Program-made: the position numbers and the translations under genes
Notes under the pieces: model-generated
Told to the model about the DNA's origin: nothing
Databases searched by the model: none
The model's input: the letters and a program-made list of their open reading frames with translations, nothing else
In this document: positions 1 through 35,032 of the stretch, piece by piece
Position numbering within the stretch: position 1 is the first letter of the stretch
Layout of the letters: each line of letters begins with the position of its first letter
DNA from: Gammaproteobacteria bacterium
Lineage (GTDB): Bacteria > Pseudomonadota > Gammaproteobacteria > Porifericomitales > Porifericomitaceae
Reading direction: 5' to 3'
Assembly: GCA_014238615.1 (NCBI GenBank)
Contig: JABAAT010000007.1
Coordinates: 40,736 to 104,735, forward strand
DNA: 64,000 nt

Positions 1-5769
<5,769 letters not shown>

Positions 5770-19573: not shown

Positions 19574-20290
19574 ATGGAAAACGCCATGGAGAACAGCCTG
19601 GACAAGGGACTGAACACCGACCTGAAGCACCTGGGCCGACGCACGGCTGCCCGGCCCCAGCCCCCCTCCCGCAAGGCCGCGGCCTTGCTGGGACTGGCCT
19701 GCTTTCTCGCCGGTGTTCTCACCGGTGTTTCCGTTAATCCGGAGTTCGGCCGCGCGCCGCCCGAGGTGCAACCTCCCCCAGTCCAAAACGCCGGGGAGCC
19801 TGAAATCACGGCCGAAAAAGACCCCAAACCGATGAAATTCGAGTTCTACACCCTGCTGCCGGAACGCGAAGTGAAAGTGCCGGAATGGAGCGGTGCGCGG
19901 GAACCAGCGCCCCACCATCAGGCGGACGGAGCGAGCGGGGCGGACGGGGCGGACGGCGTCTCGGCGCCACGCGCCGGCTACATGCTGCAGGCCGGTTCTT
20001 TCCGGCTCCTGGAGGAAGCCGAGCGGCACCGTCGAAAACTCGCCGAATTCGGCGTGACGGCGGAGATACAAACGGTGGTTTTGGAGACGGGGGGACGCTG
20101 GCACCGGATCAGAATCGGCCCAAACGCTGATTCGGACGCGCTCAGAAAACTGCAGGCGCGCCTGCGCCGCCACGGCTTCCATTCCATGCTGCTGCGCCTG
20201 CGGCCGAAACCAGTGGAGCCAAAACCGGTAGAGAAAGGCGCGGCTGACACCACGAGCCGCGGAAGCGCTGGACAGACTTGGAGCGGGTGA
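19574..20290 (+). CDS. SPOR-domain protein (FtsN/DedD-like, cell division associated)
   Basis: Starts MENAMENSL. One TM (AALLGLACFLAGVLTGV), a Pro-rich linker, then a C-terminal SPOR-like block YMLQAGSFRLLEEAERHRRKLAEFGVTAEIQTVVLETGGRWHRIRIGP. A SPOR gene downstream of argS is a common arrangement. The 3' end overlaps tRNA-Gly on the opposite strand. Confidence 0.6.
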   Translation: MENAMENSLDKGLNTDLKHLGRRTAARPQPPSRKAAALLGLACFLAGVLTGVSVNPEFGRAPPEVQPPPVQNAGEPEITAEKDPKPMKFEFYTLLPEREVKVPEWSGAREPAPHHQADGASGADGADGVSAPRAGYMLQAGSFRLLEEAERHRRKLAEFGVTAEIQTVVLETGGRWHRIRIGPNADSDALRKLQARLRRHGFHSMLLRLRPKPVEPKPVEKGAADTTSRGSAGQTWSG

Positions 20291-20352
20291 TGGGAATCGA
20301 ACCCACGTCATCAGCTTGGGAAGCTGAGGTTCTGCCATTGAACTACACCCGC
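20279..20352 (-). tRNA. tRNA-Gly (anticodon CCC)
   Basis: Minus-strand sequence GCGGGTGTAGTTCAATGGCAGAACCTCAGCTTCCCAAGCTGATGACGTGGGTTCGATTCCCATCACCCGCTCCA. 7-bp acceptor stem; GTTC/GAAC D-stem; anticodon loop TTCCCAA; T-loop TTCGATTCC; encoded CCA. Near-identical to the E. coli glyU architecture. Confidence 0.85.
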
Positions 20353-28992: not shown

Positions 28993-31806
28993 ATGGAAAA
29001 ACACTACCAGCCCGAACACTTGGAGCGCCGCTGGTACGCGCACTGGGAACAGCAAGGCTGCTTCGCACCGGCTGGAAAAGGCAAGCCCTATTGCATCATG
29101 TTGCCGCCTCCCAACGTCACCGGGCAATTGCACATGGGACACGCCTTTCAGAACACCCTCATGGACCTGCTCATCCGCCGGCAACGCATGGACGGCGGCA
29201 GGGCGCTCTGGCAGGGAGGCGTTGATCACGCCGGCATCGCCACGCAACTCGTCGTGGAACACCAGCTGCGCGCCCAAGGCCAGGAGCCGCGCACCATGGA
29301 GCGCGAAGAGCTGCTGCGCGCGGCCTGGGATTGGCGCACCGCCTCGGGCGACGCCATCACCCGGCAAATGCGCCGCCTGGGCGCCTCCCTGGACTGGAGC
29401 CGCGAACGCTTCACCCTGGATGAAGGCATGTCGAGCGCGGTGTTGGAAGTCTTCCTGGCCCTGCACCGGGAGGGGTTGATCTACCGCGGACAGCGGTTGG
29501 TCAACTGGGATCCTTCGCTCTGCACCGCCGTCTCCGACCTGGAGGTCAGCGCCAGGGAAGAGGACGGCCGGCTCTGGCACCTGCGCTACCCCGTGGTCGG
29601 CACATCCACGACGCTGGTGGTCGCCACCACCCGCCCCGAAACCCTGCTTGGCGACACGGCGTTGGCCGTACACCCGGAGGATGAACGCTACCGCCGCTGG
29701 ATCGGCGGCCGGGCCCGCGTGCCGCTCTGCGATCGGGAGATACCGATCATCGCCGACGACTTCGTGGATCCGCAGTTCGGCAGCGGCTGCGTCAAGGTCA
29801 CACCGGCGCACGATTTCAACGACTATGAGGTCGGCCTCCGCCACAAGCTGCCTTGCCTGAACATCTTCACACCGGAAGCCAGGCTGAATGAGCAGGCGCC
29901 GCCGGCCTTCCGCGGCCTGCAGCGCGGGCGCGCCCGGGAAGCGGTGCTACAGGCGCTGCGTGCACAGGGGTTGCTGGAAAAGGTAGAGCCGCACCGCTTC
30001 AAAGTGCCGCGCTGCGAACGCACCCGGGAAATCGTGGAACCGCTGCTCACCAGGCAGTGGTTCGTGCGCACCGGGCCGCTGGCGGAACCGGCCATTCGGG
30101 CCGTGGAGCAGGGCCGCGTGCGCTTCATCCCCGAAAGCTGGAACGCCACCTACTTCGAGTGGCTGCGCAACATACAGGACTGGTGCATCAGCCGCCAGCT
30201 CTGGTGGGGACACCGCATCCCGGCCTGGTACACCCGGGACGGCGACGTGCACGTCGGCCGCTCGGAAGAGGAGCTGCGGCAACGCGCCGGCCTGTCCCCG
30301 GAAACGGAGCTACGGCGCGATCCAGACGTTCTGGACACCTGGTTTTCCTCGGCCCTGTGGCCTTTTTCTACTCTCGGCTGGCCTCAACAGACCGGTGAAC
30401 TGCGTAGCTTCTACCCCACTTCCGTCCTGGTGACGGGCTTTGACATCATCTTCTTCTGGGTGGCACGCATGATCATGCTGGGACTGAAGTTCACCGGCGA
30501 GGTGCCTTTCCGCGAGGTGTACATACACGGACTGGTGCTGGACAGCACAGGCCAAAAGATGTCGAAATCCAAGGGCAATGTCCTGGATCCACTGGACCTG
30601 GTGGACGGCGTGCAGCTGGAGCCCCTGGTCAAAAAACGCACCCAGGCCCTGCTCCGGCCCGGGGACGCGCCGCGCATTGAGAGTTCCACGCGCCGGGAAT
30701 TCCCTGAAGGCATCCCGGCCTACGGCGCCGATGCGTTGCGCCTGACCTTCACCTCCCTGGCCAGCCTGGGGCGCCGCGAATTGCGTTTTGAAGTGGGCCG
30801 CATCAAGGGCAATCGTCATTTCTGCAATAAACTCTGGAACGCCACCCGCTACGTGCTGGGCGCCGTTTCGGGGCAGGGGGGGGGAAACCCCGGGGGCAAA
30901 CCGCGGAACGCGGCGGAAGCCCCGCCTCCCGGCACCAACGAAGCCTGGATCCTGGCGCGCCTGGGCCGCGCCCTCGGCGCCATCAACAGCGCCCTGGACG
31001 AGTACCGTTTTGACCAGGCGGCGCGCGTGCTGCGCCACTTCGCCTGGGAGGAATACTGCGACTGGTACCTGGAGCTGGCCAAGATCAGCCTCGGCGATGC
31101 GCGCCGCGGCGCGGCGGAAAAAGCGGCCGTGCGGCGCACCCTTCTGGAAGTTCTGGAAGCCTTCCTGCGCCTGGCTCACCCCTTCATTCCCTTCCTCAGC
31201 GAGGAGCTGTGGCGGCGGGTACAGGAGGCGCGCGGGGCCAAGCCGGAGCCGGGGGCGAGCCTCATGTTGCAGCCTTGGCCACGCGCCGAGCAATTCCCCC
31301 GCGCCCCCGGGGCCGAGGCCGAAATACAGTGGCTGCAGGATTTCCTGGGCGCCCTGCGCCAGATGCGCTCTGAAAACCGCTTGGCGCCCGGCAGACTGCT
31401 GCCGCTCTATTGGAGCGGCGGTACCGCGCGGGAACGCACTTGGCTGCATCACCAGGAACACGCGATCCTGGCCCTCGGACGCCTCCGCGGCCTGGAGGAA
31501 AGCCCGCGGCGGGGCGACGCCGCCACCGCCCTGGTCGGCGACATGCTCCTGCAACTACCCCTGGAGGGACTCGTGGACCCCAACGACGAACTGCGGCGGC
31601 TGCGGCGCGAGCTGGAAAAGCTGGACAAACGTCTGCGCTCATCCGAGCAACGCCTGGCCAACCAGGACTTCCTTGAGCGCGCGCCCCCGGAGCTCGTCCA
31701 GCGCGAGCAACAACGCCACGTGGAACTGTCCCAGGCCATGGACAAACTCCAGTACGAGCAACTCCGCCTGCAGGATCAGCCGGGCGACGCGAAGCCTTCT
31801 TCCTGA
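28993..31806 (+). CDS. valS: valine--tRNA ligase
   Basis: 937 aa. HIGH motif PPNVTGQLHMGHA, KMSKS motif, and C-terminal coiled-coil. Confidence 0.95.
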   Translation: MEKHYQPEHLERRWYAHWEQQGCFAPAGKGKPYCIMLPPPNVTGQLHMGHAFQNTLMDLLIRRQRMDGGRALWQGGVDHAGIATQLVVEHQLRAQGQEPRTMEREELLRAAWDWRTASGDAITRQMRRLGASLDWSRERFTLDEGMSSAVLEVFLALHREGLIYRGQRLVNWDPSLCTAVSDLEVSAREEDGRLWHLRYPVVGTSTTLVVATTRPETLLGDTALAVHPEDERYRRWIGGRARVPLCDREIPIIADDFVDPQFGSGCVKVTPAHDFNDYEVGLRHKLPCLNIFTPEARLNEQAPPAFRGLQRGRAREAVLQALRAQGLLEKVEPHRFKVPRCERTREIVEPLLTRQWFVRTGPLAEPAIRAVEQGRVRFIPESWNATYFEWLRNIQDWCISRQLWWGHRIPAWYTRDGDVHVGRSEEELRQRAGLSPETELRRDPDVLDTWFSSALWPFSTLGWPQQTGELRSFYPTSVLVTGFDIIFFWVARMIMLGLKFTGEVPFREVYIHGLVLDSTGQKMSKSKGNVLDPLDLVDGVQLEPLVKKRTQALLRPGDAPRIESSTRREFPEGIPAYGADALRLTFTSLASLGRRELRFEVGRIKGNRHFCNKLWNATRYVLGAVSGQGGGNPGGKPRNAAEAPPPGTNEAWILARLGRALGAINSALDEYRFDQAARVLRHFAWEEYCDWYLELAKISLGDARRGAAEKAAVRRTLLEVLEAFLRLAHPFIPFLSEELWRRVQEARGAKPEPGASLMLQPWPRAEQFPRAPGAEAEIQWLQDFLGALRQMRSENRLAPGRLLPLYWSGGTARERTWLHHQEHAILALGRLRGLEESPRRGDAATALVGDMLLQLPLEGLVDPNDELRRLRRELEKLDKRLRSSEQRLANQDFLERAPPELVQREQQRHVELSQAMDKLQYEQLRLQDQPGDAKPSS

Positions 31807-32042
31807 TGCTGCGCATCCTCCAGGAAGACATCCAGGTGGTCTTTGAACGCGACCCGGCGGCGCGTGGCGCCGAGGGGCCTTCTTCCTGATGCTGCGCATC
31901 CTCCAGGAAGACATCCAGGTGGTCTTTGAACGCGACCCGGCGGCGCGTGGCGCCAAGGGGCCTTCTTCCTGATGCTGCGCATCCTCCAGGAAGACATCCA
32001 GGTGGTCTTTGAACGCGACCCGGCGGCGCGCTCCCGCTGGCA
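31794..32042 (+). repeat. 83-bp direct tandem repeat, 3 copies (starts 31794, 31877, 31960), spanning the valS stop and cysE start codon
   Basis: The unit GCCTTCTTCCTGATGCTGCGCATCCTCCAGGAAGACATCCAGGTGGTCTTTGAACGCGACCCGGCGGCGCG(T/C)... is repeated with one or two substitutions (GCCGAGGGG vs GCCAAGGGG). Copies 1 and 2 each carry an ATG (31806, 31889) opening a 27-codon [25 protein letters not shown](E/K)GPSS*. Copy 3 carries the real cysE ATG (31972). Confidence 0.9.
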
Positions 32043-32727
32043 AGTGCTCACCACCAGCCCCGGCCTGCACGCCATCTGGCTGCACCGCCTGAACCATGCC
32101 CTGTGGCGCCGCGGCTGCCACTGGACGGCCAGGTTCCTGGCCCACCTCGGACGCTTTTTCACCGGTATCGAGATCCACCCGGGCGCCAGCATCGGGAAAC
32201 GCTTCTTCATCGACCACGGCCACGGCATCGTCATCGGCGAGACCTCCGAAATAGGCGCCGACTGCTCCATCTACCACGGTGTCACCCTGGGCGGCACCAC
32301 CTGGCAGCCGGGCAAACGCCACCCCACGCTGGAGGACGGGGTCGTGCTGGGCGCCGGGGCAAAGATCCTCGGCCCCATCGTGCTCGGCAAAGGCGCCCGC
32401 ATCGGCTCCAACTCCGTGGTCACCCACCCGGTCCCACCGGGAGCCACGATCGTGGGCGTGCCGGGACAGATCGTCAAGACCCGGGCGGGCCGGGCCTCCT
32501 CCGCGGAACCCGCCAGGGAACATCCCTTCGATGCCTACGCCAGCAGTGCAGACGAAGCCAACCCCGTGCAGGAAGAAATCCAACAACTACTGGGCAGGAT
32601 AGGCGCCCTGTCGGAAGAGCTGCACACCCTGAGGGACAGGCTCAATCACGACGCCGGGCAGCAGGACCGCAAGGACCGAAAAGACCCCAGCCAGGCCCCG
32701 CCCCCGGAGCAGGACCCGGAAGACTGA
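31972..32727 (+). CDS. cysE: serine O-acetyltransferase
   Basis: Hexapeptide-repeat core [44 protein letters not shown]; N-terminal ERDPAARS. Unusual ~60-aa charged C-terminal extension. Confidence 0.85.
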
Positions 32728-33016
32728 GGAAACATCACAACAAGAGACCACCGCGTGGTCCTGCGTCCCGGCATCCAACCTGGTCTCCAGGCCGTGTTCG
32801 CGCTTCGCGCGCTGAACCTCATCCCCCCTGGGAAGCGCCCAGCAGCGCCCAGCTGATACGCCCGGCGGTCCTGGCAGATACGCTGGAGAGAGACCAAGGC
32901 AGACCGTCCCCAACGTACCTCCGCACTAGAACCTGCCGTGCGCTCGGCCCACCTCTCGGAACTCCGCGCTTGCCCGGCCGCGGAGAAATACAAGGCGATC
33001 CTACAATCCGTCGTCC

Positions 33017-33500
33017 CTATAATTTGTTGTCATTGACGAATTTTTGGAACTCCGGAATGCTGAATACATGCAGGAGCCAGGCTTTCCCTGCCTGGTTCCG
33101 TAACCACTGCTCCGCTCCCTCCGAGTAGCCGCCACCATCCAGCACGACTAGCGTGCTGATACCGGAATCTTCGATTGTCAATACCAGGAATGGGAATTTT
33201 TCCTCCACGCTCCCGGAAGACTGCTGCCACTTGCCTTCAATCACAAGTCCGTTCGGGTGCCTGGTGGGGTGGTACAGGATAAAGTCGCACTTGTTGGTTA
33301 CGTCTGTACGGGTCTCTCCCTATCGGATACTGCCTGGCATAAATCGGTTGCCCCTTGCATTTCAGCGTGGCGAATTCCGCCGCGTCAGCGCGCTGATACC
33401 CGGCCCGCTCTACCACGCTGGAGATAATCTCCTCCAGGTTACTTCCGGTCTTGTTAGCTCGATGACCTTGTTGATCAGGTGCTTGTGATGATGGTTTCAT
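33017..33500 (-). pseudogene. PD-(D/E)XK nuclease-like gene split by a -1 frameshift (candidate degraded restriction endonuclease)
   Basis: Two overlapping minus-strand ORFs (33237..33500 and 33017..33244). When joined they read ...KCDFILYHPTRHPNGLVIEGKWQQSSGSVEEK..., i.e. D...(E)xK spacing. Immediately downstream of, and overlapping, a Dam-family MTase. Local GC about 50%. Confidence 0.45.
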
Positions 33501-34464
33501 TTCGGTCGCCGCGGTCTTCCGCCCTGCAGTTGATGGTGCCTGCCGCTTTTGCCGTATGGATTGTCCAATGCACGGACTTGTAAAGTTTGCGGATGAACGG
33601 CGTGTCTGAGTTGGAGATGATCACCGCTGCTCCCGCCTTACGCCAACCGTCCGCACACTTTGCAAGGTGTTGCTGTGCCTCGCTGTTGAAACGATGAGCC
33701 GTATATTGATCGTAGGTCTCATCGTAGGGCGGATCGCAATAGACCAGGTCGCCCTCCCGCGGTGCAATCGCATCAAAAAGCTGCCTTTGCAGGTCTGCCT
33801 CTTTGAGTGTTGCGGATACGGCGCGCAGGTTATCGGCATCAACGATCGCGGGGTTTTTGTATCGACCGATTGGAACATTGAACCTCCCCGAACGATTGAC
33901 GCGATACAGACCGTTGAAACAAGTCTTGTTGAGATAAATAAACCGCGCAGCCCTCTCAATCGGATCCTCTATCCCGTCCTTCCCGCGGATGACTTTATAG
34001 TGCCGCGGTGAATGCCGGCACCGGTGGGCTTTCAATTTCTCTACCAGCTGATCGCAGTGCTGCTGGATCATTTTGTAGGCAATCATTAACTCCGGGTTAG
34101 CGTCCGACAGGTGCGCCCGGGTGATACGGTTTTCAATGGCGTAGAACAGCGCCCCTCCGCCCACAAACGGCTCCCAGTACTCCTCGATGGTGTCCGGCAG
34201 GTGTTTCAGCAGGTCGGGTACCAGCGACCGCTTACCGCCCGCCCACTTGACGAATGGGCGGGCCCGCACCCCGGACGTCGGATGCACTCCGCATAAGCCA
34301 GCCAGGCGGCCGTTCGTGGGCGCCTTGCCCGTGTGCGCCTTGCCATTGACATCTTCCGGCCCCCCGCGGCCGACGGCAGGCCGACGGCAGGCCGACGGCT
34401 GCACGCTTCCGCCCGCACCCGGCGGAGTGGGGATCGGGATGGAGCTATTCCGGGCGGCGGGCAC
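33475..34464 (-). CDS. Dam-family (D12 class) N6-adenine DNA methyltransferase
   Basis: Motifs FVKWAGGKRSL (SAM/motif I), DPPY (motif IV), and FxNGLYRVNRSGRFNVP. The true start is probably internal (GTG near 34270); the first ~65 codons are GC-rich low-complexity and contain a 10-mer tandem repeat. GC about 55%. Confidence 0.8.
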   Translation of the reverse strand: MPAARNSSIPIPTPPGAGGSVQPSACRRPAVGRGGPEDVNGKAHTGKAPTNGRLAGLCGVHPTSGVRARPFVKWAGGKRSLVPDLLKHLPDTIEEYWEPFVGGGALFYAIENRITRAHLSDANPELMIAYKMIQQHCDQLVEKLKAHRCRHSPRHYKVIRGKDGIEDPIERAARFIYLNKTCFNGLYRVNRSGRFNVPIGRYKNPAIVDADNLRAVSATLKEADLQRQLFDAIAPREGDLVYCDPPYDETYDQYTAHRFNSEAQQHLAKCADGWRKAGAAVIISNSDTPFIRKLYKSVHWTIHTAKAAGTINCRAEDRGDRNETIITST

Positions 34465-34474
34465 GGGCTACCGC

Positions 34475-35032
34475 CTAGAAGGGGATATCGTCGTCAAAGT
34501 CCTCCCCGCCACCGGAATCGGCGGGTCCGGGCGCGCTCTCCCGGGGAGCGCGGGGCGCACTTTCCCGGCCGCCGCCGCGCGTCGGTGCGCCGCGCCGGCG
34601 CTCACCACCACCGTCCGCCCCCCCGGACGGGCCCCCGGACGGGCCATCGTACGACTCCCCCCCCTGCGACGGGGGCTCGCCGGATGTCTCCCCACGGCGG
34701 TCCAGCATCATCATGTCGTTGCCGACGACCTCGGTGTTGTAGCGATCGCGGCCTTCCTGGTCCTGCCACTTGCGGGTCTGCAGGCGTCCTTCCAGGTAGA
34801 TGCGGGAGCCCTTGCGCAGATATTGCTCGGCGACCTCGGCGGTGCGCCCGAAAAGCACCACCCGGTGCCACTCGGTGTGGTCGATCCATTCGCCGCTGTC
34901 GCGATCCTTCCGCCGATCGGTGGTGGCCACGCGTAGATTGGCCACCGTCACCCCACTCTGGGTGCTGCGTGCCTCCGGATCGGCGCCTAAATTGCCGACC
35001 AGTATGACTTTATTGATGCCTCGACCTGCCAT
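34475..35032 (-). CDS. ssb: single-stranded DNA-binding protein
   Basis: OB-fold N-terminus [20 protein letters not shown]; Gly-rich tail ending DFDDDIPF. Divergent from uvrA. Confidence 0.9.

Follow-up and report, generated by a model that had tools for sequence, protein, structure and literature searches.

A Dam-like methyltransferase gene beside a frameshifted PDDEXK_11 nuclease gene: probable remnant of a horizontally acquired Type II restriction-modification cassette

Directly downstream of ssb in an uncultured gammaproteobacterium, a short segment of comparatively low G+C content (GC) carries a DNA methyltransferase (MTase) gene followed by a broken nuclease-like gene, raising the question of whether the locus holds a working restriction-modification (R-M) system or what is left of one. 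The segment belongs to a stretch of 64,000 nucleotides (nt) from contig JABAAT010000007.1 of assembly GCA_014238615.1, the whole of which we call the window. Both genes lie on the minus strand, all inside 32728-34470. The original prediction, made from the letters of the sequence, was that of a Type II R-M system whose endonuclease had decayed to leave an orphan or solitary methylase, and our analysis upheld it, in that an intact MTase open reading frame (ORF) stands beside a frameshifted PDDEXK_11 gene. We consider it probable (roughly 0.8) that the module is an immobilised remnant of a horizontally acquired Type II R-M cassette that lost its endonuclease recently and kept a solitary methylase, most likely one that acts on GATC. 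The module contains the following features.

33475-34287, minus strand: Dam-family (D12 class) N6-adenine DNA methyltransferase gene, apparently intact, with its TGA stop at 33475-33477
33017-33500, minus strand: PDDEXK_11 (PF20472) PD-(D/E)XK nuclease-like pseudogene, 161 codons if repaired
33237-33500, minus strand: frame A of the nuclease gene, 87 codons from ATG 33500
Lesion to 33017-33019, minus strand: frame B of the nuclease gene, closed by TAG at 33017-33019
33290-33305, minus strand: inactivating 1-nt insertion within AGACGTAACCAACAAG, the exact extra base not being assignable
33237-33239, minus strand: TGA that terminates frame A after about 20 codons read out of frame past the lesion
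32988-33001, minus strand: remnant of a right terminal inverted repeat (IR) of the IS1595 family (ISNwi1-like), GGATCGCCTTGTAT, possibly extending over 32981-33003

The MTase ORF contains the motifs FVKWAGGK, FVGGG (S-adenosylmethionine binding) and DPPY. Its product matched PF02086 (MethyltransfD12) with an E value of 1.1e-55 and 189.6 bits (cut-off 22) and TIGR00571 ("dam") with 255.3 bits (cut-off 114.85), so that the D12-class adenine MTase predicted from FVKWAGGK and DPPY was confirmed far above both cut-offs. High scores were also obtained on the PADLOC models "oMTase" and "MTase_II". In contrast, the equivalog model for Escherichia coli Dam, NF008152, gave only 146.9 bits (cut-off 441). 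The best relatives with solved structures were M.DpnIIA (2dpm; 7.6e-50, over the full length) and then E. coli Dam (4e-36), and the protein is 54-67% identical to MTases paired with homologues of the nuclease.

The ATG of the nuclease gene at 33500 lies 26 nt before the MTase stop, and the two genes therefore overlap. When the two nuclease frames were joined, the 161-amino-acid (aa) product matched PF20472 (PDDEXK_11) with 85.8 bits (cut-off 23.7) and was 60-66% identical to intact homologues of about 154 aa, in agreement with the roughly 165-codon PD-(D/E)XK ORF overlapping the MTase gene that had been proposed. Both proteins of the module score so far above the thresholds of curated families that chance resemblance can be set aside for the gene identities. 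The canonical start of the close homologues, ATGnCTGA, overlaps the MTase stop; it reads GCACCTGA in the window, where an in-frame ATG eight codons upstream serves instead, as in the homologue P0004. The segment CDFILY...IEGKWQ is present, with the catalytic Asp (CDF) and the Glu-x-Lys motif (IEGKW) both encoded. In an alignment of 108 family members, 47 columns were conserved at ≥80%, and the repaired protein was identical in 46 of them, the sole exception being a conservative replacement of Leu by Val.

Alignment to intact homologues bracketed the lesion between a Tyr codon at 33308-33306 and a Cys codon at 33289-33287. The interval between these codons is 16 nt in the window (AGACGTAACCAACAAG, 33305-33290) compared with 15 nt, or five codons, in loci L016, L017, L020 and L027, and protein alignments showed no length difference among the homologues in this interval. 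The difference therefore corresponds to a 1-nt insertion at about 33290-33305, which places the C-terminal part in the +1 frame. The frameshift that had been predicted thus exists, but neither its proposed position near 33240 nor its sign of -1 was retained: only the TGA at 33237-33239 lies near 33240, and the lesion is an insertion. The product of frame A lacks the catalytic Asp and all that should follow it. Gene callers run on contigs that carry the same sequence also split the gene and called only a 75-aa C-terminal PDDEXK_11 fragment (from GTG 33244), while no exact copy of the 87-aa N-terminal fragment was on record. The 75-aa fragment lacks the Asp, and so neither piece has a complete active site; it is in this sense alone that the split parts the Asp of CDF from Glu-x-Lys. 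A working nuclease can therefore not be produced. The lesion being the only one in an otherwise pristine gene, the inactivation appears to have occurred recently.

If the extra base were a sequencing or assembly error, the system would be intact and active, as the original prediction had allowed. Single-base indels are the commonest assembly artefact, and a nuclease that is otherwise flawless in its conserved columns is what such an error would leave. However, five contigs, drawn from four sample or run accessions, agreed with 100% identity over 2001 nt that include the extra base: three scaffolds from two BioSamples in the ENA assemblies ERZ23490334 and ERZ23489589, two of them from the latter, and the Logan assemblies SRR11455660 and SRR11455655. 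We found no homopolymer or simple repeat at the lesion site (AACCAACAAG). Because five contigs from two assembly collections share an identical insertion at a site that is not a homopolymer, a sequencing error is very unlikely, and the decay of the endonuclease, split by a reproducible 1-nt insertion, was substantiated.

A real break could still be a functional one, through a programmed +1 frameshift, a slippage or phase-variation switch, or assembly of the enzyme from split halves. R-M genes are sometimes phase-variable, and a late shift is geometrically possible in that frame A runs on for about 20 codons past the lesion. Against this, the lesion site has no simple repeat, homopolymer, or shift-prone codon with a stop, and each of the 108 family members in the alignment is a single ORF whose length is unchanged at this position. 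Split halves are opposed by the incomplete active site of each fragment. Programmed frameshifting and phase variation were rejected for want of a slippery or repeat sequence, and we regard a functional break of any kind as extremely improbable.

To what kind of system did the two genes belong? A D12 MTase gene followed on the same strand by a PDDEXK_11 gene, with overlapping or abutting ends (the overlap usually being 8 nt), was present in seven of seven unrelated loci; the contexts compared were L016, L017/L018/L019, L020, an Alicyclobacillus plasmid, L027 and L028/L029. On the plasmid the pair adjoins an Abi gene, and its two members carry the PGAP names "Dam family site-specific DNA-(adenine-N6)-methyltransferase" and "PD-(D/E)XK nuclease superfamily protein." The identities of MTase and nuclease to their counterparts in the window co-vary (66/64, 67/66 and 54/61%). 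A profile search of 1.84 billion representatives gave 1220 clusters (661 at E≤1e-10), nearly all of them stand-alone proteins of about 150 aa, and one 432-aa protein, P0242, is a natural fusion of a D12 MTase (residues 17-253) to PDDEXK_11 (287-411). A collection of phages yielded no match and plasmids a single distant one.

Two of the paired MTases showed irregularities of their own. In L029 (2131-2999, on a 3.47-Mb contig) the MTase is split into 86 and 203 aa beside an intact nuclease, and in L028 (2130-2999, on an 82-kb contig from the same sample) it is intact at 289 aa; the gene call for the MTase of L020 covers just 208 aa, with the FVKWAGGK region lying upstream of it. The split in L029 and the short call in L020 may reflect indels introduced during assembly, or else decay in the "wrong" order.

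An alternative is that PDDEXK_11 proteins are MTase-associated nucleases of another kind, for example repair or nicking enzymes or transposon accessories, rather than restriction endonucleases; the module would then at no time have been an R-M system, and the methylase would have served a function outside defence throughout. Such a role would suit the very small size of the protein (154 aa), as well as two loci in which the MTase-nuclease pair is fused to a transposase operon. It would also suit the absence of any member of PF20472 with a solved structure or an NCBIfam name and of any paper on PF20472 or PDDEXK_11 in our literature search; against the PDB, a sequence search with the family profile found nothing, and Foldseek nothing at E≤0.001. 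As no characterised member was found, we infer the activity from context and fold, which argue strongly that the partner is a true restriction enzyme, and we consider a role other than restriction improbable.

The conserved pair also indicates how the cassette may have travelled. In L027, a complete 2.3-kb IS1595-family (ISNwi1-like) transposon at 1175-3492 carries the MTase and nuclease genes as passengers. The cassette is preceded there by an overlapping transposase gene with Zn_ribbon_IS1595 and DDE_Tnp_IS1595 domains, and the three genes are bracketed by imperfect 24-nt IRs starting GGGAATTAT (1183-1206 and 3461-3484), which are the only pair to exceed all shuffles. An 8-bp target duplication, CTTCTATT, directly flanks these IRs at 1175-1182 and 3485-3492. 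A DDE_Tnp_IS1595 transposase is present in L028/L029 as well, whereas L027 is the only locus in which the whole structure was seen. The pattern GRRTCGYBWWGTRW, built solely from the sequences that follow the nuclease gene in L016, L020, L027 and L028, matched the 64-kb window once, at 32988-33001, compared with 0.12 matches expected. The match lies 16 nt after the nuclease stop, coincides with the drop in GC, and gives the boundary of the foreign DNA on the side of cysE; the sequence that it resembles is the right IR of the complete element in L027. These observations suggest that the cassette in the window is at most a one-ended, immobilised relic, unable to move by itself.

Two further candidates for transposon sequence in the window were judged too weak. 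One was GGAAT-N10-CGATCC at about 34430-34451, noticed by eye as a possible left IR like that of L027, and the other was the 16-nt segment 34288-34303, which resembles the 3' end of the transposase genes of L016 and L028. The association itself has precedents. R-M systems and solitary methylase genes tied to insertion sequence (IS) elements, including IS1595 passenger genes, have been described (Furuta et al. 2010, PMC2853133), and passenger genes of ISNwi1-like IS1595 elements are credited to Siguier et al. (2009) where PMC2853133 cites that work.

A GATC site occurs in the terminal IRs, as CGATCC or GGATCG, in L027 (1200-1203 and 3463-3466), in L028 (about 3525-3548) and in the window (32996-32999); it has been lost from the degenerate ends of L016 (GGGTCG) and L020 (GAATCG). 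The site in the IRs is a probable target of the cargo methylase, and regulation of transposition by methylation is a possibility.

The composition of the module points to the same foreign origin. In 300-nt windows, GC was 0.52-0.57 over about 32950-34150, compared with 0.64-0.70 in the adjoining genes. The cassette has an overall GC of 0.556 and a GC at third codon positions (GC3) of 0.57-0.68, against a GC of 0.66-0.69 and a GC3 of 0.80-0.85 in the four housekeeping neighbours valS, cysE, ssb and uvrA; the lower local GC that had been reported was therefore borne out. Because both GC and GC3 deviate, and because the same cassette recurs in unrelated contexts, including a complete IS1595-type transposon whose right IR has left a remnant after the nuclease stop here, the proposal of horizontal acquisition was supported.

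The closest host relative, L045, shares 84% identity in UvrA and keeps the order ssb-uvrA-pfkB-acyltransferase; by its UvrA matches the host falls within uncultured Gammaproteobacteria, and named matches, among them Thiotrichales, Thiohalobacter and Competibacteraceae, are about 70% identical. Homology to L045 stops exactly at the ssb stop codon, downstream of which L045 has a response regulator gene and rve and DDE_Tnp_1 fragments, with neither cysE nor the MTase gene. Since everything past the ssb stop differs in L045, the region 3' of ssb seems to be prone to variation in this lineage.

Which sequence the methylase would recognise can be judged from its relatives. The nearest solved relatives all methylate GATC, and alignment to E. 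coli Dam showed conservation of K9, N120, L122, R124, P134, R137 and Y138, which we take to be DNA-contacting residues of that enzyme. Y119 of E. coli Dam is replaced by Phe in the MTase of the window, as it is in DpnM. GATC is thus the likely specificity of the MTase.

The setting of the module among the host genes is as follows.

28993-31806, plus strand: valS
31972-32727, plus strand: cysE (serine acetyltransferase), a host gene with Hexapep matches and CysE relatives, convergent with the module
34288-34474, minus strand: spacer with a GC of 0.74, from the end of ssb to the conserved region of the MTase gene
34475-35032, minus strand: ssb (PF00436), a host gene directly upstream of the module on the same strand
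Beyond ssb, plus strand: uvrA

The GC-rich spacer contains a perfect tandem repeat of three 11-nt units at 34368-34399 (GGCCGACGGCA) and one of two 15-nt units at 34315-34344; homology to other cassettes and a transposase remnant were searched for in 34288-34474 and none was seen. On the other side of the module, an 83-nt unit is repeated in 2.9 tandem copies with 99% identity at 31794-32030. The unit takes in the stop codon of valS, the start codon of cysE that overlaps it (cctGATGctg) and about 70 nt from the beginning of cysE; the product encoded by copies 1 and 2 is short, and only copy 3 runs on into full-length cysE. Another scaffold from the same population, L022, differs in the 5' part of cysE that carries this repeat. 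Over the whole window, CTAG is strongly depleted (22 observed against 61 expected under a second-order model), and the single Rfam match is a minus-strand tRNA at 20282-20352.

Several observations weigh against the reading of the module as an immobilised R-M remnant, or against parts of it, in addition to the lack of a characterised PF20472 member. The module does sit between cysE and ssb, as the original prediction had it, but the insertion event proposed with that position was not demonstrated, because no empty site was found: CysE-based scans of genome and metagenome contigs gave only relatives of ≤57% identity with no ssb nearby. Direct or inverted repeats flanking the module amounted to short, chance-level matches. 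A tblastn search with the L027 and L028 transposases found no transposase remnant in the window, and neither a left IR nor a target duplication rose above shuffled controls there, which leaves the right-end motif as the one trace in the window of IS-borne ancestry.

Other points concern the genes themselves. The start of the MTase is uncertain: its ORF is open over 33475-34464, the upper end being a GTG at 34464 that lies 10 nt past the stop codon of ssb. Candidate starts are the in-frame GTG codons at 34287 and 34269 or positions up to GTG 34464. At the DNA level, homology to the other cassettes sets in near 34272-34287. Neither a promoter-like nor a terminator-like site was found between ssb and the MTase gene in 34288-34474. 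As the MTase gene also follows ssb on the same strand at a distance of 10-190 nt, its expression is probably most simply explained by read-through transcription from ssb. The five contigs that share the insertion may all sample one clonal population. Finally, the window shows no avoidance of GATC as a trace of past restriction (294 sites observed, 302 expected), a result that we rate as uninformative rather than contrary.

We propose that a compact cassette, consisting of a Dam-like N6-methyladenine (m6A) MTase gene followed by a gene for a small PDDEXK_11 endonuclease, arrived horizontally; elsewhere, transposons of the IS1595 family carry the same cassette as cargo. The uncultured gammaproteobacterium studied here would since have lost the transposase and the left end, and a single-base insertion would recently have disabled the endonuclease. 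The MTase, with its frame and all of its motifs kept, would persist as a solitary methylase with no restriction partner; it most likely acts on GATC and probably depends on read-through from ssb for its transcription.

Were this sequence of events correct, the population would probably carry GATC m6A deposited by a foreign solitary methylase and lack a matching restriction barrier, which is relevant to methylome-based binning and to susceptibility to phages and plasmids. The locus would also capture R-M decay cleanly at its first step. Given the post-segregational killing that R-M systems exert, R is expected to be lost before M, and a single lesion in R with all else intact fits this standard model. 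The side observation on PF20472 may outweigh the decay itself in interest. The family can reasonably be put forward as a candidate new restriction enzyme of very small size, because it has a constant Dam-type MTase partner, because none of the libraries searched gave a characterised member, and because it can be IS1595 cargo.

A broader and rather doubtful conjecture would join these strands. PDDEXK_11 proteins might be minimal (about 154 aa) Type IIP enzymes related to the DpnII/MboI core and cognate to Dam-like GATC methylases. They might be spread by GATC-ended ISNwi1-type transposons in which the cargo methylase ties transposition to replication in the way known for host Dam with IS10 and IS50. 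The window would then represent an end state, with the transposase and nuclease gone and the methylase domesticated behind ssb.

Compared with known systems, the module resembles the DpnII/MboI GATC systems in its MTase, for which M.DpnIIA is the best solved relative, and in the two-gene, same-strand Type II layout. Among the 108 PDDEXK_11 family members, 33 gave sub-threshold matches to the catalytic part of the DpnII family PF04556 (profile positions ~142-217; best E value 2.3e-6). The nuclease of the window, with 11 bits (E=0.26) against a cut-off of 23, is not itself a PF04556 member. Unlike DpnII, at about 280 aa, the PDDEXK_11 nucleases are only about 154 aa long and form their own family, and the R gene of the window is dead. 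The DpnII cassette, which has two MTases, also differs in gene order and number.

With E. coli Dam, the MTase shares the D12 class, the aligned DNA-contacting positions and a passing score on TIGR00571, but it fails NF008152, is compositionally foreign, and comes from an R-M cassette rather than a housekeeping context. With IS1595 transposons that carry passengers, the window shares the right-end motif of the L027 element, while no transposase, left IR or duplication was recognised in the window. The likeness to solitary MTases derived from decayed R-M systems consists of an intact M gene beside a frameshifted R gene in DNA of foreign composition. Decay of an R-M system that leaves a solitary Dam-like methylase is a routine, common and well-understood fate, and the module differs from such cases in nothing of principle; it would be a new instance of this fate at a very early stage, with one lesion.

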